In this document: piece after piece, positions 7,433 through 56,074 of the stretch
Numbering within the stretch: the stretch's first letter is position 1
How the letters are laid out: each line of letters begins with the position of its first letter
Source: Eledone cirrhosa
Lineage: Eukaryota
NCBI GenBank assembly: GCA_964016885.1
Contig: OZ024741.1
Coordinates: 199,082,001-199,146,000, forward strand
DNA: 64,000 nucleotides
Direction: 5' to 3'
Position numbers and translations under genes: made by a program
Notes under the pieces: model-generated
Seen by the model: the letters and a program-made list of their open reading frames with translations, nothing else
The model's database searches: none
What the model was told of the DNA's origin: nothing

Positions 7433-8423
7433 ATTTAAATTAATGATTATTTGCAAAATATAGGCAGTATCTTTCAATAGAAATAAGGTAATGAAAGGAT
7501 TAAGTGGATAGCTGACAAGCCCTATATACCTTGAGTATGAGCAGTGTTATATATTTGTTTTTTCATTGAAAATACTCTACATAATCCATATATTGTACCT
7601 AGCAGTGTTATTTTCTGGCTGTTTGGTTATATATTCCTCTGCATCTTTTCCTTATACTACCTATTATTATTGGGGTTGTTTCAATTTTTAATCCCCTCAT
7701 TTTTTGCCATGTGTAGCCCAGTTTTTAGAATAGGTATACCACATAAGAGGTAACTAAGATGGTTGCCATCAGGAGGGGCATCTGACTGTAAAGCATTGTC
7801 TCAAAATATCCCATACAACTCATGCCAGCATGGAAGAGTGAATGCAAAAGCAATGATGAGCAATGATTTTGAAAGAAAGATGAAAAAGATGAGCCTAGCC
7901 AGAAGGTATCTTGGATGTTAGAAGAGGAACCTAGGATGCTTAAGCAGGAGCCGGTTTCCACAGAATCATATAACTTCACAGTGATCTGACAGAATAACTA
8001 TGAACTGCTTACCTTAAATGTTTGATCTAGAAGAAAATCAACCAACAAATATATTGATGAAGTGCAAGATGTCATGCAAATGTCAGAAGCACTAATAGAT
8101 GTCAGACTCTACAAGCCTCAACTTATCCCAAAAAGGCTTATGGGTGCAATTGGGTGCAAACACCTTCAATACACTGAATTTCAAGCAGGAAGATTTGTGG
8201 AATGCACTGACCTGATCTAACTGGTGGATTATCCCCAGTGTTTTAAATTTTTTAAAATTATATATATATTTTTAAAAATTATTGTTTGATTTGTAATATA
8301 ATTATCTATTTATTTTGTGTTTAATTTATATAAAGATTTTAGCATGTTTAATATAAACTCTATAATGTCTCTGATCCTCTTATTTTTATATGTTACTGTT
8401 ATTATTAATATTATTTTTTTCAG

Positions 8424-8998
8424 GAAATGCAAAAACAGTTCGAAATGACAACTCTAGTCGCTTTGGTAAATTCATGCAAGTTTGCTTTGATAAGAACAAC
8501 CAGATTATTGGCTGTATCGTGCAGGATTACTTACTTGAGCAATCCAGGATTACATTCCAGTCAGCCAATGAACGAAATTACCATGTCTTTTATCAAGTGG
8601 TTGCTGGTGCTACAGCTAACCCAGAGATCAAGGAACAGTATTATCTTAAGGATATTACCACTTACAATTACTTAAACCAGAGTGGCTGTTACAAACTTGA
8701 TGGATTTGATGATTCAGCCATGTTTGATGCCTTACGTCTTGCCTTTGAAGTACTAAATATACCATCAGTGATGGTCAGTGGTATATTCTCGGTGATTTCC
8801 TCTGTTTTGTTGCTAGGCAACTTGCAGTTTGAAGATATTGATGGTGAGAAGTGTCAACTAACTGAAAGCGACAAAGATATATTAAGCAATGTCTGTGATC
8901 TACTGGGTCTTTCTAAAGAAGGAATGATCGAAACAGCCCTCTATCGCCAAATACACGTTCGTGGAACTGTTACTAGTATACCATTTAAGGTACAAGAG
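8424..8998 (+). CDS. Myosin exon d with switch I ([17 protein letters not shown]…YLLEQSR…ERNYHVFYQ…SIPFKVQE)
   Basis: ttcag|GA...GAG|gttagt; 575 nt, phase 1/0; canonical motor-domain motifs. Confidence 0.97.
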
Positions 8999-9182
8999 GT
9001 TAGTATTTGCTTCTTCTTTTTGGGTATTAAACTGTTGCTGTCTCAGGTTGTTGTTGTTTGTCTGATCAAAATCAGTGATCAGTTTTCAGTGCCCACTGCA
9101 AGGAGGTTAATAACTTAGGCCCCAAGTATTTCCTGTGTTTTTGTTTTCCCTCTTTCACCACCCGTAGTCAGGTCACTCTTGA

Positions 9183-13286: not shown

Positions 13287-13763
13287 ATATACATATATAT
13301 ATATGTATATATATATATATATGTATGTATATATGTATGTATATATATGTATATATATATGTATATATATAGATATAGATAGGTAATTATACACGGGTGT
13401 GTATGATTGTGTATAGAAGATTATATTAATAAGAGGAATTCCAACTTTGTCTGATTTACTCGTTTTATTTACAATCCTTTAAAATATATATAATGGTAAT
13501 GCTAACAGGAAGAAAAATAATATACAGAATACCAAAAATAGGACAAAATACATAACGAAACCAAATATAATATCACGACCAAAAGTTCATCAAGCGAACA
13601 CCAACAGGAATATAAATCCTGAACAGAGAAAAATTCATTTTTTAACGTCAGGACAACAAAAACCGGAAAAAGAAAAACTCCAGGAGGAAACATACCCAAA
13701 ACAGCTGTACACGTAGATCCTAAAATAATTAATTTATCTAAAAGAGATCTTGACAATGATGAA

Positions 13764-15950
13764 ATGCAAATTCTGTCAAAAGGACTGAAATTCACACCGA
13801 CTCCAACAGTCAACCACCAAGAACTGAAGGAGGATACCCAAGAATTCTGTCGAAAATTACGTCTTGTAGAATTCTTCGCTGATAAAAATAATGAGAGTGA
13901 TGAATCACTAGTAAAGAATAAATCAAATTTCACTCCGCCAAAAGGAAGAAATATCTATCTCGACCAATACATTGACATCCTGTCTAAATTTCCTCTTAGA
14001 CATAATACTAATGTTAGGCCAAACATTAACGAATCAGAAATGTCTGCACTTAAACGTATACAAAATGATAAAACAATAATAATTAAACAAGCAGATAAAG
14101 GGGGTGCAGTTGTTATAATGGATACTGAATACTACAAGGATTTGGTTGAGGAACAACTGAAAGACACAACATTCTATCATGAAATACCGTCAAATATAGA
14201 CCACAACATCATGAAGAAGATCAACAACCTGGCTTCAAAATACCACAACTCATTTACTGATAAGGAAAGAGACTACATCACCAATTTTGAGCCGAAACCC
14301 AGCAACCTGTATGGCCTACCGAAAGTTCACAAGTCAAAAGAAATACAACTGGCAGTAAGAGAACAAAACAGTGAGTACATTAAATTATTACACCCAAAAG
14401 ACTTAAAACTTAGACCTATTATAGCTGGTCCAACATGCCCCACTCACCGTCTAAGCAATTTTGTTGACATTATTTTGAAACCACTATGTATTCACATACC
14501 CAGTTTCATCCGGGATGATATCGACTTCCTGTCCCATCTTCCCCAAACCACGGAAACGAATTCACTTCTACTCAGTTTTGATGTGGTAAGCCTTTACACC
14601 AATATTACACATGATTTAGGAATAAAGGCGGTTAAATACTGGGTGGAAAAACATAGAGAAGTGATTCCCATTAGATTCACAGCGCCATTTATATTAGACG
14701 CAGTTAAACTTATTCTGGAAAACAACACTTTCTTCTTCAATGGAAAGAATTACATCCAAATTAGAGGCACAGCGATGGGAATGAAGTTTGCTCCCTTTTA
14801 CGCGAACTCTGTAATGGGATACTTAGAACAACAACTCTACCAAGAAATAGAGGAAAAATATAGTACTGACTTTAGAAAGTACATTGAAAAATCTTGGAAG
14901 AGATACCTTGACGACTGTTTCATCATCTGGACAGAATCTCTAGATACTCTGGATGAGTTCAATATCCTCCTGAATAACCTACACCCATCTCTCCAATTCA
15001 CAAAAGAGATGAGTAGGACCAAATTACCATTCCTAGATATAATGATAATCAAAAACGACACCACCATTACCACGGATATATATTATAAACACACAGACAC
15101 CCATCAATATCTGAATTTTAAGTCGTGCCATCCACCTCATACAAAACGCAACATCCCATACTGCCTATCCAGAAGAATTTGTACCATTGTAGAAGATACG
15201 AATACCAGGTACAAACGCCTAACAGAACTAAGAGAATTTTTGCTCAAACAAAAATACCCATCTCTACTTATAGAAAATGGCATACAGCGGGCTATAAAAA
15301 TACCTCTACAACAACTTAGGACAACCCAAGGAAGAAGAAACCAAGAACTGGTCATACCATTTATAATGACACACAACCCATGTCACCAGAATATATTCAA
15401 CACTGCCAAAGCAAACCTACCGATCATTGCTCAAAGTAATGAATTAAAAGGCTTAATCACAGATCGATCTTTGACTCTTAGTAAAAGACAGCCAAAAAAT
15501 TTGAAGCAATTGCTAACAAAAGCAAAGTTTGACCTTAACAACAAAGACCAATCATTCACTGTATCTAAATGCAATGATAATCGATGCGGCACATGTCAAT
15601 CCATACACGCCGGTCAATATATGAAAACAAAAACTGGAAAAATATTCCCAAATGCAAATATGAACTGCAAAAGCAGAAATCTAATTTACTGCATTAAATG
15701 CCCGAATTGTGAAGAACTATATGTCGGTCAAACTGGAAATGCACTATCGGAACGTGCACGGGTACACCGTCAACAAATCAGAAACCCAAATGTCCGTCAG
15801 ATACCCCTAAGCGGCCACCTGGCAACATGTGGTCAGGGAATATTTATAATATTCCCATTCTACAAATTACACAGCCCAAGTGAAATCAAGAGAAAAATCA
15901 AAGAAAAGAATTTTATTGATAAATTCAAACCCAAGCTAAATGAACAATAA
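13764..15950 (+). CDS. Penelope-type reverse transcriptase with GIY-YIG endonuclease (728 aa from the first Met; frame open from 13623)
   Basis: NLS...LSKGLKFTP N-terminal motif, ADKGG, LYGLPKVHK, LRPII, FDVVSLYT, GTAMG, RYLDD, LPFLD, a Cys-rich linker and IYCIKC...YVGQT...R...H. Confidence 0.95.
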   Translation: MQILSKGLKFTPTPTVNHQELKEDTQEFCRKLRLVEFFADKNNESDESLVKNKSNFTPPKGRNIYLDQYIDILSKFPLRHNTNVRPNINESEMSALKRIQNDKTIIIKQADKGGAVVIMDTEYYKDLVEEQLKDTTFYHEIPSNIDHNIMKKINNLASKYHNSFTDKERDYITNFEPKPSNLYGLPKVHKSKEIQLAVREQNSEYIKLLHPKDLKLRPIIAGPTCPTHRLSNFVDIILKPLCIHIPSFIRDDIDFLSHLPQTTETNSLLLSFDVVSLYTNITHDLGIKAVKYWVEKHREVIPIRFTAPFILDAVKLILENNTFFFNGKNYIQIRGTAMGMKFAPFYANSVMGYLEQQLYQEIEEKYSTDFRKYIEKSWKRYLDDCFIIWTESLDTLDEFNILLNNLHPSLQFTKEMSRTKLPFLDIMIIKNDTTITTDIYYKHTDTHQYLNFKSCHPPHTKRNIPYCLSRRICTIVEDTNTRYKRLTELREFLLKQKYPSLLIENGIQRAIKIPLQQLRTTQGRRNQELVIPFIMTHNPCHQNIFNTAKANLPIIAQSNELKGLITDRSLTLSKRQPKNLKQLLTKAKFDLNNKDQSFTVSKCNDNRCGTCQSIHAGQYMKTKTGKIFPNANMNCKSRNLIYCIKCPNCEELYVGQTGNALSERARVHRQQIRNPNVRQIPLSGHLATCGQGIFIIFPFYKLHSPSEIKRKIKEKNFIDKFKPKLNEQ

Positions 15951-16327
15951 TAACGCCTAGGGGTATTACTTCTACTACCACTATGACCACGACCACTAAC
16001 AACAACAACAACAACAACAATAATAATAATAATAAAAGTGATGTTGATGGTGATGATTAATAGAAAATGCTATTTTCATCATTTCAAAAAGCAAAACAAT
16101 TGATACGTTGGGTATGACTATTGGTCGTTAGCATGCTCAACCAGCCGTGACGCTTAAACCAATCAGCTGTAGTAATTCAGTGAAGCTACACACTGATTGG
16201 TCGAAATACAGTTTACAGGGCTTTGCATTCTGGAGCCACTTTTCTCTGTATAAAATGTATAAAAGGTAGGAAATTTACCCATCTCATTACAGTTGAAAAT
16301 TGCAAACTCGACTGTCAGCACATATCA

Positions 16328-16366
16328 TGAACCTGAAGATTGCGAAAGCATGAAAGTACTTGTTCA
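16328..16366 (+). ncRNA. Minimal type I hammerhead ribozyme in the Penelope 3' pseudo-LTR
   Basis: TGAAC-CTGAAGA-T-TGC gaaa GCA-T-GAAA-GTAC-TT-GTTCA: stem I TGAAC/GTTCA, palindromic stem III AGTACT. Confidence 0.75.
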
Positions 16367-16490
16367 ATTAACACTTAGAATTTAATATTCTATCATACTA
16401 TTTCATTATAATACCATTATATATATTTTAAAGGATTGTAAATAAAACGAGTAAATCAGACAAAGTTGGAATTCCTCTTATTAATATATG

Positions 16491-16522
<32 letters not shown>

Positions 16523-19607: not shown

Positions 19608-19647
<40 letters not shown>

Positions 19648-19731
19648 AAGTTATATTTAAAATTGTTGGGTTACAACTAGTAAATATTTATAACTGATAT
19701 AAAAGCACTCGACAAATATTTGGAGTATATT

Positions 19732-20080
19732 TACAATATTAAATAAATGGAAAACTATATTTATAAAACCATATTTATTTCATTATATATATTTCGGGGA
19801 TATCATATTAACAATATGCTATGCCTTCATCAGACAAAATACAATATAAACAGTTTTATAGATAAATAGATTCGACATACCGTAATAACACCGACTTCAC
19901 AGCGTAAACCTCTTCAAATGAAGTCGGTGTTATTACGGTATGTCGAATCTATTTATCTATAAAACTGTTTATATTGTATTTTGTCTGATGAAGGCATAGC
20001 ATATTGTTAATATGATATCCCCGAAATATATATAATGAAATAAATATGGTTTTATAAATATAGTTTTCCATTTATTTAAT

Positions 20081-20086
<6 letters not shown>
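19732..20086. repeat. Perfect 168-bp inverted repeat with a 19-nt spacer; each arm carries a hammerhead core
   Basis: 19732-19899 reads as the reverse complement of 19919-20086; CTGATGA at 19985-19991 and GAAA at 20023-20026. Confidence 0.92.
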
Positions 20087-20115
<29 letters not shown>

Positions 20116-25577: not shown

Positions 25578-27997
25578 AAGAAGAAGAGAGCTTTGTGTCA
25601 CAGAAAACCAATCTGCTCCAAAATGAAGCAGAAAACATGGGAGGATAAAGTAATGCATAGGAAATACTGAAAAAAGAAACTGATGTGAACCAAAATATAG
25701 AATAGTAGTCAAGGATTGAAAGCAGATGGAGGAGGACCTGATAATCACTGCACAAGGCCAGGGTTTGGAAATCTGATTCTATCAAAATTGCTTCATCAAG
25801 CATGAAATCCATTGTCTCAGGATGCCTGGATTTGACAAAAACTGAATAAACTCTTAATCAAAGCAGACTAGAAAATGTGCAGGAGTTAACAAGATCAAGA
25901 TGGCTAAGAAGTGGTACAAACATTCATCAAGTACAGTCACTGACAACAATTATGTCACCATCTTCTAGAAGATACTAATCCACACTGATAGTAAGATCAT
26001 CATCATCATCGTCACCTGCATTGCTACCACCACCATCACCACCACCACCACCATCACCACAACCACCATCATCATCATCATCAGCCAGTTTTCGATACTT
26101 ACATTGACTGGACAGATATTTCCCACCCTTCTACTCATTGTGGTCCTTCATCTCCTCTGTGAGCTTCAGCAATTTGAAATCAGCTCTCACAAGCCCTTCT
26201 TTGATCTTCCTCTACTACAGCTTTCATTAACTGGGGTTTCTTGGTACTTTTCCACCCAATGATCATCATCCATATGTATCACTTATCCATACCAGCACAG
26301 TCTTCTCTCCTGTACACTGCATCTGCTTCATCTTATACCTCAGCTCATCCATGATTTTAGTTAAAGGGTTGGGAGGACCCTTCGGTCATGTCAAGGTTAT
26401 AAAAGCCACCCTAATGTTGGTGATCTACACAATAAATGCACCCAGTACATGCTGTAAAATGGTTGGTGATAGGAATGGCATCCTGCTGAAGAAAGCTTCC
26501 CAAACAAAGAGTTGGGAGGACTCTACAGCTGTATTGAAGTTATGACAACATCCCTTGTGCACTCAATAGAACATAAGACCTTACATATGTGAGATGCAGA
26601 GACCCAGCTTGTCTGGGAGGTAGGTAGTCCCACTTCAGTACTGACTTAGTCTATTTAGACCCATCCAATGATGATGATGATGATATCAATCCCTATGTAT
26701 TATTGGTGCGATTTCATTATCTTTGAATGGAGGAAACTAGAACTTATACTTAGTAGGATCTGAAATCAGAGAATAAAGGCACAAAATTAAATACCATTAG
26801 ATAATAATACCACTGAGTTGAATCATTGCCGCAAGGTAAAAATATGTTGACAAAATTTAGTTTATTTGGTTGACTTCTTTTCCCAATTATTGGATTGAGG
26901 CTATGCTGGGGCATTACCTTAAAGATATTTAACCCTTTCAATATCATACTTCTGATGAAAAAACACTGTTTATAATGTTCAAATAATTTTGAAAGCACTC
27001 AAAAATTTTGAGTGATTTCGTAATTAACTAACTTTCTCATTAGTAAGCTGGTGTTTGGAATGTAACTTAACAAAGGGTCTTACATAAAATTATGAGAGAC
27101 GTGTTTTAGATAAATATGAACAGTTTTATACTGTTAAACTAGCAACAGTTTCAGGTAATTTGGTACAAAAAGAATCAATTCAATCATATTGACTCCAGTA
27201 CATATTATTTCCATGGTTTGTATTAATTTTATTGATATCTTTTTGACAAACTGCTAAGTTAGGGGACATAAAAAAAGACAAGATTGACCTTGGCAAGATT
27301 TGGATTCAGAGTGCACATAACTGGAATACCACAATTCATTTTATTTTGTGTTCTAATTTGCCTATTCACTACCTACCTATAATTATCTTATTGCACTTTG
27401 GAAGATGAAAAGCAGTAGGATCCAGTAGGATCTCAAACCTAGAGACATATCAAAATACAGTAATACATGATTACACAAAAATGCCAGCATAACCAAGTAA
27501 ATAGGATATCAGACTTTCAGTTCTGAGATTGTAAATTGAGAGCTACACTACAGAAACTAAACTTAGCTAATGAAGTTATGGCATCATAGGTGTTTGTAGA
27601 AGGATTAAGTTTATAGCCTTGTAACTCATCTAGTATTATTAGAGTATAAACTACTTTATATATATATATCTTCTCATGAAAATGGGAAAACTGGAATGGA
27701 AGCTGTTAGAACAGCAAAGTACCTTTGAAGTGGCATTGAATGAGGTTGAAATCTGAAGAGCATATTTTAATGTTTGTGGCCTGTTCGCTTTCATTCATTC
27801 TTTTTCTCATTCCTATCTTCTCTTCCTTTGAGTCAACTCACATTGAGCCGCTGATCTCTGTCCTTCAAGGTAATATTTTACCTAACTTTGCTTCAACGGT
27901 ATTTTGCTGTTCTAACAGCTTCTATACACCGAGTTTTCCTATTTTCCTGAGAATCCTAATACACTCGCATCTCAAAACTCTATTTTCAAGTTAATTT

Positions 27998-28026
<29 letters not shown>

Positions 28027-28035
<9 letters not shown>

Positions 28036-28203
28036 TGAGATTCTACAGGACTAGAACTGTTTCATTCTTTAGAAATCATAGGATTTCTAAAGAATGAAAC
28101 AGTTCTAGTCCTGTAGAATCTCATCTATATTAAAACTTTTATACTCTGCAATGTATTGAGTACCTTACTTACTGTGGTTAACTCCGATTCAACCCGGAAT
28201 AAC

Positions 28204-31090: not shown

Positions 31091-31306
31091 CTCTCTCTCT
31101 ATATATATATATATAATGTATCTATGTGTGTGTGTAATGTTTATATGATGATTTCATATGAATGAAACAGTCTAGTCCTGTAGAAGTCATTTCAGTATAT
31201 AATAAAGATGCTTATTCTCTATCAACATATTGAGTACTCTTTGCAATTGAGGTTAACCCCCCCCCCCAACACTACTCATGAATCTACACATTATATACTA
31301 TATTTG

Positions 31307-35297: not shown

Positions 35298-35308
35298 TAT
35301 ATATATAT

Positions 35309-35667
35309 ATAAAAAAAAAATAAAATTTAGCTTCAAGCATAGCTTTATACAATATGTATAAATATTTCGTATCTCCAAGGAAATACAGTTTTAGGAAGCC
35401 GTAGCTATGCAAACACTGAGGGGCTAACGCCCTCTGGTGATGTCCAGCAGAAGCAAGGGGGACAACCATCTATGCATTTCAGGCTTAACTGGCTATCGTC
35501 AGGACGGTTCCTCCCACCGCTTGTGACTGCTGGACTAGAAGACAGCTGAGAATATATACTTTTCTCGTCTGTGTAAATGAGGTGATTAATCTCATGAAGC
35601 TGCATAAGTTGGCTCAACTTATAATAAAAAGAAATAGGATTTCGCTTCAAGCATAGCTTTATACAAT
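35309..35667 (-). mobile_element. Retrozyme-like hammerhead monomer, copy 1 (period 314 nt, terminally redundant)
   Basis: gcttcaagcatagctttatacaat at 35330-35353 and 35644-35667; hammerhead at 35464-35509; close similarity to 40095-40474. Confidence 0.78.
35464..35509 (-). ncRNA. Type I hammerhead ribozyme
   Basis: Reverse complement AACCGTC-CTGACGA-tagccagttaagcct-GAAA-TGCA-TA-GATGGTT; extended stem I (tccagcag/ctgctgga). Confidence 0.75.
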
Positions 35668-39908: not shown

Positions 39909-40094
39909 ATACATCAAAGGAGTTAGCAGTATGTCAACAGTCAACAGGTCAGCCAGCTTAGATAGGGTAATGAGTTATGTGGTGATGGTGGGGAGCGAGT
40001 GTAGACGTTATTGTTATATATAAATATTTTGTATATATGTATAAATATTCGTATATATGTATAAATATTCGTATATATGTATAAATATTCGTAT

Positions 40095-40474
40095 ATATGT
40101 ATAAATATTTCGTATCTCCAAGGAAATACGGTTTTAGGAAGCCGTAGCTATGCAAACACTGAGGGGCTAACGCACTCTGGTGATGTCCAGCAGAAGCAAG
40201 GGGGACAACCGTCTATGCATTTCAGGCTTAACTGGCTTTCGTCAGGACGGTCCCTCCCACCGCTTGTGACTGCTGGACTAGAAGACAGACGAAAATATAT
40301 ACATTTCTCGTCTGTGCAAATGTGGTGATTAATCTCATTTGCATATGAAGCTGCATAAGTTGGCTCAACTTATAATAAAAAAGAAATAGGATTTCGCTTC
40401 AATGATAGCTTTATACAATATGTATACATATTTCATATCTCCATGGAAATACAGTTTTAGGAAGCCGTAGCTAT
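40095..40474 (-). mobile_element. Retrozyme-like hammerhead monomer, copy 2 (period 323 nt, 57-nt terminal redundancy)
   Basis: 40095-40151 is repeated with a few substitutions at 40418-40474; hammerhead at 40208-40251; ATTTGCAT at 40337-40344. Confidence 0.8.
40208..40251 (-). ncRNA. Type I hammerhead ribozyme, intact core
   Basis: Reverse complement ACCGTC-CTGACGA-AAGC cagttaa GCCT-GAAA-TGCA-TA-GACGGT; perfect 6-bp stem I, palindromic stem III ATGCAT, AUA cleavage triplet. Confidence 0.8.
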
Positions 40475-40810
40475 CAGCCGTACTAAGAGTGAGAAATGAA
40501 ATTTTGTTTCATTCTTTTCCATTTATTGTTTTCGGTGCTCCCGGCCGACTAACTCACTCGATATGCAAATTAGGCTGCTCAGCCGTTAATATGCATAAGG
40601 AAAGTATATACTTTCAGACGCTCAATCATCTGGCAGGAAGGTATACGATGCTGGCGATAGCTAATAAGCTTGAAACTAGTACATCGTTCCTGTGTCAGTG
40701 TTGAACAAAAAGGCGACGATGGTTGCCTGATCACTGTACGGTGTAATTCGGGCTGTTTGTTTACAAATAAACCGAACATTATAATAAATGTTCGGTAAAC
40801 CCATACGTAC
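40475..40810 (+). mobile_element. Second hammerhead-bearing structured unit (retrozyme-like family 2)
   Basis: ATGCAAAT at 40563-40570, hairpin gaaagTATATActttc, hammerhead at 40645-40687, terminal hairpin accgaacatt/aatgttcggt; single copy in the window. Confidence 0.6.
40645..40687 (+). ncRNA. Type I hammerhead ribozyme with one core substitution (CUGGCGA)
   Basis: ACGATG-CTGGCGA-T-AGC taataa GCT-T-GAAA-CTAG-TA-CATCGT; stem I extends through cagga/tcctg across a bulge. Confidence 0.7.
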
Positions 40811-40815
40811 ATATA

Positions 40816-41065
40816 TCATCATCATCATCATCAACGTTTAACGTCCGTGTTCCACGCTTGCATGGGTTTGGACGGAGGTAGTCCCACTTGAGGCAAGAGT
40901 GATTGTCTTGCTCACATAGGACTGTCTGGCAGGTTTTCTACAGTTGGATACCCTTCCTAACACCAACCACATTTACAGTGTGGGTCTGGGAGGTTTTTAC
41001 CGTGTTGCCTACACGGCCACATTACAGCGTGGACTGTGTGTTTTTTTGTCGTGACACCTACATGA
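40816..41065 (-). mobile_element. RTE 3'-tail / RTE-derived SINE-like fragment
   Basis: (CAT)n followed by sequence matching 61495-61750; a similar piece lies at 41975-42192. Confidence 0.75.
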
Positions 41066-42569
41066 TATATATATATATGTGTGCATGTATGTATATATAT
41101 ACATACTACTGTACGTCTGTATACATATATGTATGTACGTATACATACAGACATATATATATATATATATTTATTAAAATAACAGATTAAATTTTAAGCA
41201 AAGAATCACTGTTAGTTAATCATGGTGTAATAGTAGAAAAAGCACTCTACGTTACACAACTCATCCAACGTTGATGTTGAATCCTGTAGTTGATGATAAA
41301 TATTGGTTTGATTAAAACAACATGAGGCTGGACTGGTGATGTTCCTTTAAAGTTTTATTGTTGTAAAACACTATATATATATTTATGTAAGACCCTGGTG
41401 ACGTCATCAGGTGCATATTAATACCTAATTAGTTAAACAATAAAAGAAAATATAGACAAAATATTTGATTTGGAGATGGCCTGCCACCTAGGTATTATTG
41501 TTGTCGCTGACCATCCCTGAATAGCAAGCTAGTCAATGCAAAGCATTGTGGGTTTGGTAGGCCCGGCCAAGGTGGGTGTGGGGCTAGTATGGTGGTGACA
41601 TATATCCTGTTTTTTATAGATACTACTATGCTGATGATAGCTACTCTGACCATAGTGACCAGGGTGGGCTTAGTCATTGAAATACACTGTCAGTGAAAAT
41701 ACACTGGCCAAAACCAGTTAAGTATGATGATGATGAAGATCAGATTACTGTAGATGTGGAGGCCCGGTTATAAAATTCTAAAATGACCAAAACAATTCTA
41801 TAAAGTGTTTAAAAAATATAATGAAAGTTTGGTGTTAAATAAATGAACAAAAATGAATGATGAAAAATACATTTAATACATTTAAGAAAAAGTATAAATT
41901 ATAAAAAGTTTAAATTAGGAAAACCTGTAAAAAAAGGAGTAAGTATCGATAAAGTATAGACACACACACACACATCATCATCATCACCGTTTTACGTCCG
42001 TTCTTCCACGCTAGCATGGGTTAGACGGGTTGTCCTGTTGTGAGCAGTGTCTGGTCGGCTGACCATGTCTTGCTCATACAGGAACTGATTTGGCTTGATT
42101 TCTACAGCTGGATGCCCTTCCTAACACCAACCTCATTTACAGTGAGTGCTGGGTGCTTTTTTTCCGTGGCGCCTACACGTCCACTTTACAGGTACACACA
42201 TGTATATTATTGTATTCATTGCCTGTGTTTCGATAAAATAATATATTTAGTTCTCATTAATATGTGTGTATTTGTATTGTGAAGGAATGAGTGTGGCTTG
42301 GTGTTCTGTCTATAATGACTTATGTGAAGGTCTGAAGAATGAAGTCAGTACTGAGGAAATTTAATTCCAAGCACTCTAGGAATGGGGACACATTCTGGAA
42401 CCTTGTGTTTAACTTGGACAGCCCTCATATGTAACTTTCGGTATAAATACCTGAAAAACATGTAACCAGGCCATTGAAATATATATATATAGTGTTTTTG
42501 CAACAATAAAACTTTAAAAGAACATAACCAGCCTGGCCTCCTGTCATTTAATCAAACCTATATATATAA

Positions 42570-55852: not shown

Positions 55853-56074
55853 CGTAGGTCCCGGGTTGAGTCGGGGATAACCACAGTAAGTAAGGTACTC
55901 AATACATGGCAGAGTAAAATTTTTTTATATTTTATAGAAGGAGCTTCTACAGGACTAGTACTGTTTCATTCAGATGAAATCTTCAGGAAGCTGGGTGTCA
56001 TATTAAGTTCTGGTATTTATACATTTAGGTAGTGGTAAGGGAGGGGTGGTGGAAGGGGTTGGGGGGTTTGGGGG

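Follow-up and report, generated by a model that had tools for sequence, protein, structure and literature searches.

We hold, with a probability of roughly 0.7, that the genome of Eledone cirrhosa contains two abundant families of type I hammerhead repeats, F1 and F2, with motifs resembling snRNA promoters ahead of the ribozyme, whose units likely promote their own transcription, probably by RNA polymerase II, and were likely copied by Penelope-type enzymes. One copy of each family lies in the window, i.e. the whole stretch of 64,000 nucleotides that was analysed.

Two hammerhead repeat families at one site

The two copies at the site, and a second F1 copy in the window, are built as follows:

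40095-40474, minus strand: F1 retrozyme copy, 1.18 times the 323-bp unit (40095-40151 repeats 40418-40474), 5'-truncated, tail-less end
40472-40474, unstranded: head-to-head junction of F1 and F2, overlap of 3 nt, single genomic occurrence
40472-40816, plus strand: F2 retrozyme copy, first part, unit of about 434 bp, 5'-truncated
40817-41065, unstranded: uncharacterised other repeat, inserted into the F2 copy
41066-41155, plus strand: F2 copy, second part, tail-less end in (TA)n
35304-35667, minus strand: second F1 copy, octamer deleted (8 nt, near 35595), 3' end tailed

The F2 copy at the site is thus a single truncated unit interrupted by another repeat, and no ORF of 150 amino acids was found across 40095-41155. 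In a first look at the genome, 1,571 candidate places were obtained for F1 and 2,073 for F2. F2 forms tandem arrays at G000:C1 (loci L214 and L215), the former (G000:C1:9968300-9972500) being an inverted pair of F2 multimers of which 7 and 2 units were seen, while F1 was encountered only as 1.x to about 2 units. With more than 1,500 candidate places each, F1 and F2 can be described as abundant protein-less hammerhead repeat families, and their short non-coding tandem units with a predicted type I hammerhead per unit are those expected of retrozymes. The initial annotation had called the two units dissimilar, which holds at the BLAST level (best E 0.068), but a chain of intermediate families suggests a distant homology between F1 and F2.

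Two observations concern the surroundings of the copies. A 20-bp tandem repeat (4.9 copies, window 40015-40115) extends the terminal bases at the 3' end of F1 in a manner resembling slippage copying. In addition, an open frame at window 8375-9118 (plus strand) contains putative myosin motor-like motifs, and the repeats may be intronic in a myosin gene.

The ribozymes were located at the following positions:

40209-40250, minus strand: F1 type I hammerhead, predicted from sequence, core at 40245-40239, stem III a palindrome, cleavage predicted between 40214 and 40213
40646-40686, plus strand: F2 type I hammerhead, core at 40651-40657 (A6 privately changed), stem III a palindrome, cleavage predicted between 40681 and 40682

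A search of the whole window at the Rfam gathering threshold gave 0 matches, and therefore the hammerheads in the window were called by motif and pairing; the core, stems I-III and the cut site were recognised by sequence in both families. A gathering scan of 20 loci likewise returned no match, and an E-value scan of 20 further loci returned only U13 and microsatellite noise. Hammerhead patterns searched across the genome gave 48,374 matches versus 154 in the control, and a second pattern 41,758 versus 3,395. The core follows TATATA by 50 nt in F1 and by 40 nt in F2. Both copies deviate from their families, as the F1 copy at 40095-40474 has an A-C mismatch in stem II, where most family copies have G-C, and the F2 copy reads CTGGCGA in the core instead of the family CTGACGA. 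Having one ribozyme only, each copy at the site could not release a monomer, and the two could yield at most short transcripts.

Further hammerhead-family copies or fragments are situated elsewhere in the window, at 19633-20104, 27997-28201, 31146-31185, 41370-41410 and 55859-56066. They are of the G1/G2, G5 and F6-like types, with a decayed one recognised by eye near 41400, and several occur as inverted pairs. Outside the window, family F10 (L257, L267) has a 320-bp unit whose hammerhead is a variant (U3...A8 in place of C3...G8) with a long palindromic stem III; a U1/U2-like promoter lacking the octamer stands ahead of its ribozyme.

Octamer, TCAG and TATA motifs across the families

Upstream of both ribozymes, the same succession of motifs is found, numbered here from the predicted transcription start:

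40334-40346, minus strand: F1 octamer block, ATGCAAAT at 40344-40337 with flanks AT and GAG, at -73, resembling the host U6 proximal box
40324-40328, minus strand: F1 TCACC, at -57, the position of TCAG(T) in host U1/U2 promoters
40285-40315, minus strand: F1 hairpin with TATATA (40301-40296), z -4.3
40271, minus strand: F1 predicted transcription start, AGC followed by A, at TATA+30, p 1.6e-5 versus the window background
40197-40208, minus strand: F1 motif resembling a distal element, agreeing with the host snRNA distal box in 10 of 12 letters, situated in the stem I 3' arm, where it would be at -260 of the next unit's start
40561-40573, plus strand: F2 octamer block, ATGCAAAT at 40563-40570 with flanks AT and TAG, at -72
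40579-40583, plus strand: F2 TCAGC, at -56, the position of host U1/U2 TCAG(T)
40600-40615, plus strand: F2 16-bp palindrome with TATATA (40605-40610)
40635, plus strand: F2 predicted transcription start, GGC followed by A, at TATA+30, first base of the extended stem I, p 6.5e-5

The octamers and TATATA boxes described at the outset for both units were recovered at exactly these places, with gaps of 35 nt (F1) and 34 nt (F2), and the second F1 copy indeed lacks exactly the 8 nt spanning the octamer. The window contains seven octamers, and only the F1 and F2 sites are followed by TATATA 33-36 nt behind; TATATA alone, with 1,181 overlapping matches in the window, is uninformative here. The p values of the two starts were obtained by scoring against 123,906 background positions. 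A host-type distal box upstream of either window copy is absent.

The conservation of motif and spacing across the families, proposed at the outset as a check, was borne out. In the copies from similarity searches that span the region (38 F1 and 36 F2, a sample favouring young copies), the octamer is exact in 36/38 F1 and 34/36 F2 copies, the octamer-TATA spacing is kept in 37/38 and 34/36, and C precedes A at the predicted start in 38/38 and 34/36, respectively. In an F2 sample anchored on the hammerhead, the gap is kept in all 28 copies and the octamer is exact in 15 of them. Eight of the misses belong to a single array, in which the units have the one-letter variant ATGCATAT in common, indicating that a variant octamer can be multiplied. 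At L214, one octamer variant is common to 8 of 9 F2 units, as would be expected if a single circular template had been copied repeatedly.

A layout pattern that barred the base usually following the octamer in F1 and F2 gave 2,576 genome matches versus 23 in the reversed control and revealed further families. Over eight families, identity averages 0.73 in the 3 nt that follow the octamer, 0.76 in the TCAG block and 0.82 in TATA, compared with 0.34-0.44 in the spacers. F3-F7 had been retrieved by a pattern that included octamer and TATA, and F9/F10 by one that included distal box, TCAG and TATA. Between F1 and F2, the identity in the middle of the spacer is 0.08. Family F8, found by a hammerhead-only pattern, has the octamer in 11/11 copies and the C-A step at TATA+30 in 0/13 copies, and a sense-strand octamer is absent in six other hammerhead families (the Penelope repeat of the window and G1-G5). 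Because BLAST connects the octamer families into a chain, the layout appears to be conserved by descent and not by independent invention.

Octamers were also noticed in other arrangements. In family F3 (L070, L250, L321), the main octamer is preceded by another two octamer-like repeats at a spacing of about 33 nt. In hammerhead copies with a long stem II (L135, L143, L145, L157), an octamer on the other strand lies about 140 nt ahead of the core, possibly as an antisense promoter.

Relation to host snRNA promoters and choice of polymerase

For comparison, a small host set of 10 U1/U2 and 5 other promoters was assembled, in which tandem arrays were counted once and host scores are training scores; 14 dispersed U6 matches, and 11 of the 12 for U6atac, were without a promoter and were excluded as retrocopies. 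None of these 14 U6 matches keeps the octamer within 200 nt. Three distinct U6 promoters and that of U6atac have ATG(C/G)(A/T)AAT(G/T)AG at -76 to -78 and TATA at -30, the octamer or a one-letter variant lying at -76, -77, -78 and -77, respectively, and at -75 in U13. The 10 distinct U1/U2 promoters have the octamer in 0/10, a TCAG-like box at -56 to -58 in 10/10, and, at -30 to -33, a box resembling TATA. A distal box at -257 to -288 (-257 to -270 in U1/U2) is common to both classes. Anchored at TATA+30, F1 and F2 place the octamer at -73/-72, TCACC/TCAGC at -57/-56 and the C-A step at +1. By these predicted positions, they share with U1/U2 genes the TCAG-like box, the TATA-like box near -30 and the start context, and with U6/U6atac the octamer block followed by (G/T)AG, while their proximal octamer sets them apart from U1/U2. 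Octamer and TCAG occur together in no host gene among those examined, only in the repeats, whose putative promoter is a hybrid of a U6 box and a U1-U2 box, with U13 as the closest host gene.

In vertebrate snRNA genes, the octamer is distal. The octamer had been interpreted at first as a POU-factor site, but in this host it occupies the proximal (PSE) position of U6-type genes and not a distal one; a POU factor and the SNAPc complex are both candidates for its reader.

To compare whole promoters, a three-block model was trained on host U1/U2 only and applied to about 790 positions per unit on both strands. The best site lies 16-26 nt before the core, on the sense strand, in F1, F2, F3, F5, F7, F9 and F10, i.e. 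in 7 of 10 families that have an octamer or distal box together with a core, versus 0 of 6 other hammerhead families; since the families are related, these are not independent trials. TATA had been part of the search pattern for F3, F5 and F7, and TATA together with TCAG for F9 and F10. F6 and F13, single copies without an intact core, were excluded from this count, and their best model sites lie 72-73 nt after the octamer. In F4, F8 and F12, which have the octamer, the model site was not ranked first. With TATA left out, the PSE and start context still gave p 0.006 for F1 and 0.002 for F2; by itself, F1 TCACC matches the PSE weakly (p 0.13 for the family majority). A promoter-only pattern without a ribozyme term gave 178 matches versus 7 in the control and returned U1, U2 and the hammerhead families F9 and F10.

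The best distal-box match of F1 (p per site 7e-5), which no pattern had sought, is the motif in the stem I 3' arm listed above, whereas F2, F3, F7 and F8 gave no distal-box match. As this arm belongs to the ribozyme of the previous unit, the F1 promoter would be complete only across a unit boundary. The initial proposal that each monomer carries its own promoter thus finds strong comparative support in family-wide motifs and spacing that match host snRNA promoters and in the C-A step at TATA+30, and its transcriptional part is a prediction: given this match in sequence and spacing, the units likely promote their own transcription.

Several host loci came to light alongside. A pattern of distal box plus octamer gave 148 matches versus 11 in the control, and U13 was the sole new gene among the 49 matches examined. 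This U13 snoRNA (L287, G000:C7:10330300-10331300, minus strand; 49.7 bits, above the gathering score) has the distal box and the octamer at -75, and is the host gene nearest to the retrozyme promoters in spacing. In the U6 array L123-L132 (G000:C19), 5 of 10 examined units have an insertion of about 190 bp at the TATA box, which displaces the octamer from the gene, before which a TATA-like box remains. A repeat found at L227, L228, L239, L240 and many contig ends has the distal box and octamer about 200 nt apart; its copies are about 9.3-9.8 kb apart, often near contig ends, and L227 had no match in Rfam.

The same motifs could be a relic of an ancestral capture of an snRNA promoter, or be kept for RNA folding or the binding of a Penelope protein, with the RNA supplied by read-through from host genes, as a 2020 review proposes (PMC7761336, in part). 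The homology chain of the families fits such a history, and shared variants within families are not significantly rarer in motif columns (Fisher p 0.45-1.0). The units are also strongly self-paired, with z -2.3 and -5.8 for whole units folded as circles, and both octamer and TATA lie in hairpins. Folding of the region from -50 to -8 gave z <= -1.8 in 7/12 families versus 1/15 host promoters. The TATA hairpin, which had been counted as part of the promoter layout, is present, but these frequencies and the strong circular fold lead us to read it as part of a compact RNA, a retrozyme trait that more likely serves RNA folding than promoter function. At the site itself, only the F1 hairpin is strong; the F2 palindrome is perfect but of weak energy (z -1.6). 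Against a mere relic or folding role, the four blocks and their distances hold host-promoter positions while the spacers are near chance, the hairpin arms vary in sequence while TATA is kept, and the F1 distal motif lies at the host distance. We consider this explanation unlikely and prefer that of a promoter carried by each unit.

Such a promoter could also be of the U6 type, read by polymerase III into short transcripts that terminate at T runs. The extended octamer block matches U6/U6atac in 4/4 and U1/U2 in 0/10 cases, and no background site of the window attains the F1 or F2 score. In vertebrates, moreover, the TATA box selects polymerase III (PMC1761439, in part). The spacing differs, however, as the octamer-TATA gap of 34-35 nt is shorter than the 38-40 nt of U6/U6atac, and in flies the second box is 4 nt closer in polymerase II than in polymerase III genes (PMC1761439, in part). 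The TCAG box and the start context are those of U1/U2 genes, whose promoters in this host likewise contain a TATA-like box. A T6 run lies at +213 in F1 and T4 runs lie at +315 and +329 in F2, all before the next ribozyme, and yet multi-unit arrays exist. A T6 run would stop polymerase III. Combined, the spacing, TCAG, start context and T6 run probably favour transcription by polymerase II, and we regard a polymerase III promoter as improbable.

Copying, known relatives and wider meaning

The 3' ends of F1 and F2 copies are fixed and lie in (TA)n; their 5' ends are ragged. By a rough script, an inverted partner of the same family is found at the 5' end in 21/29 F1 and 11/29 F2 loci. Both families have two alternative 3' ends, tailed (about 45 nt in F1 and 60 nt in F2) and short, and where a locus has one end per strand, one is tailed and one short (10/10 F1 and 4/4 F2 loci). 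Penelope-like elements leave matching footprints of 5' truncation, an inverted 5' partner and an optional tail (PMC8557442, in part; PMC11167929). The F1 and F2 copies, which also have an AT-rich target, show this apparent Penelope-type pattern, and Penelope-type enzymes likely copied them into the genome.

Among the loci examined, no autonomous element shares its ends with F1 or F2. Families F3 and F12 each abut a truncated Penelope ORF at one locus: at L321 (4259-4337), an F3 piece is joined directly to it in a head-to-head composite, and at L320 (5300-5790), an octamer-bearing F12 repeat lies just upstream of another truncated ORF in matching orientation. These composites are possible leads to autonomous drivers. 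The window also contains a Penelope-type ORF of 775 codons with RVT_1 and GIY-YIG (13623-15950, plus strand). Its 3' terminal repeat (16073-16499), of a family different from F1/F2, has its own hammerhead at 16333 and CCAAT- and TATA-like words but no octamer in this pLTR, in contrast to the snRNA-like promoter of F1/F2. An inverted piece of this repeat lies at 13422-13498.

The divergent arrangement at the site had been viewed as a cassette, and this did not hold: the 27-nt F1/F2 junction was found a single time in 3.0 Gb when up to 2 mismatches were allowed, whereas head-to-head partners are routine among F1 and F2 loci. The pair is a one-off composite and likely a by-product of insertion; its two head-to-head copies are truncated and probably inactive. 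A functional bidirectional cassette, with both units selected as a pair, would account for two intact, divergent proximal promoters 218 nt apart; with private defects in both ribozymes, F2 split by an insertion and F1 having no upstream distal motif, in addition to the single junction, we give it very little credence. A single twin-primed event was considered for the pair, but both outer ends are short, compared with long plus short in 14/14 same-family pairs; two separate insertions, or later tail loss, would be as likely as a single twin-primed origin.

For the units in general, we propose that transcription of a tandem or multi-unit source would start about 30 nt after TATA and read into the next unit. 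The ribozymes of successive units would then cut, probably as dimers in view of the short palindromic stem III, a hammerhead form reported to cleave efficiently as a dimer (PMC4209133, in part). The released monomer would span cut to cut and hence include the promoter sequence; it would likely be circularised, and the circle reverse-transcribed beyond one unit by a Penelope-type enzyme into (TA)n sites. Copies longer than one unit are compatible with an accumulation as circular RNA. In this manner, an external snRNA-type promoter could survive retroposition, while plain U6 retrocopies lose theirs.

For newt satellite 2, Coats, Zhang and Epstein reportedly demonstrated by experiment in 1994 an active snRNA-type promoter with the octamer as a distal enhancer and the vertebrate PSE proximal. 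Published accounts agree on an snRNA-type promoter (PMC2220036, in part) and polymerase II transcription (PMC6765202, in part) of this satellite. F1 and F2 are likewise tandem hammerhead repeats with a putative internal snRNA-type promoter, polymerase II transcription and self-cleavage being established there and predicted here. They differ in that their octamer is proximal (-72/-73), beside TCAG and TATA, and the distal box is another motif. Their motifs follow the genes of their own host, and the layout, here known from sequence, is common to many families. The promoter reading of F1 and F2 is well supported by the comparison with host genes, and newt satellite 2 is its precedent.

Metazoan non-LTR retrozymes share with F1 and F2 the non-coding units of low GC (150-450 bp, although some units here reach at least 466 bp), the type I hammerhead with palindromic stem III, dispersed and tandem copies, a self-paired fold and co-occurrence with Penelope-like elements (PMC7229834, 10.64898/2026.07.22.740005 and PMC7761336, each in part). 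Circular RNA has been demonstrated for coral, mussel and axolotl retrozymes, as far as the available parts of these sources go, while F1 and F2 are known here from DNA. Retrozyme RNAs are abundant in all tissues tested. Unlike our reading, those parts describe no promoter; the 2020 review states that promoters are seemingly lacking (PMC7761336, in part). We found no report on promoters of invertebrate retrozymes in the literature searched, which did not cover subscription papers.

The polymerase III promoter of the schistosome Sm-alpha SINE-like repeats is of the tRNA type. These repeats resemble F1 and F2 in having a promoter and then a hammerhead per unit and in needing tandem copies for propagation, but F1 and F2 carry a putative upstream snRNA-type promoter inside the unit (PMC6765202 and PMC2220036, each in part). 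Penelope-like pLTRs share the 5' truncation, inverted 5' partner, partial tandem and hammerhead in the repeat, as well as an optional 3' tail from two reverse-transcription starts and AT-rich or (TA)n targets, whereas F1 and F2 have no ORF and longer tails than the 30-40 nt reported (PMC8557442, in part; PMC11167929; PMC4209133, in part). Insect PSEA/PSEB/TATA promoters have a proximal element of about 21 nt, a second box near -30 and spacings that are offset by 4 nt in polymerase II relative to polymerase III genes; their sequences differ wholly, and the analogy is for spacing only (PMC1761439, in part).

More tentatively, and at somewhat less than even odds, animal retrozymes beyond newts may as a rule be parasites of snRNA promoters. 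Each unit would rebuild the SNAPc promoter of the host lineage round the ribozyme, with the stem I 3' arm as distal box and a unit length (310-323 bp in F1, F9 and F10) set by the host distal-to-start distance. The promoter, complete only across the unit boundary, would be carried in the circle, and the octamer families would use a U6/U1-U2 hybrid, at polymerase II spacing, of a kind unused by the host U1, U2 and U6 genes examined.

If true, a host-matched snRNA promoter would explain the constitutive expression of retrozymes, and the 1994 newt result would become a general rule. It would also show a way for a retroposon to bring along an upstream promoter, which is lost from ordinary U6 retrocopies. 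The reading makes single-base predictions of transcription starts, at 40271, 40635 and their equivalents in arrays, and outlines the snRNA promoter grammar of this lineage, useful for guide-RNA expression. For the genome itself, it would mean tens of thousands of possible binding sites dispersed among its sequences.
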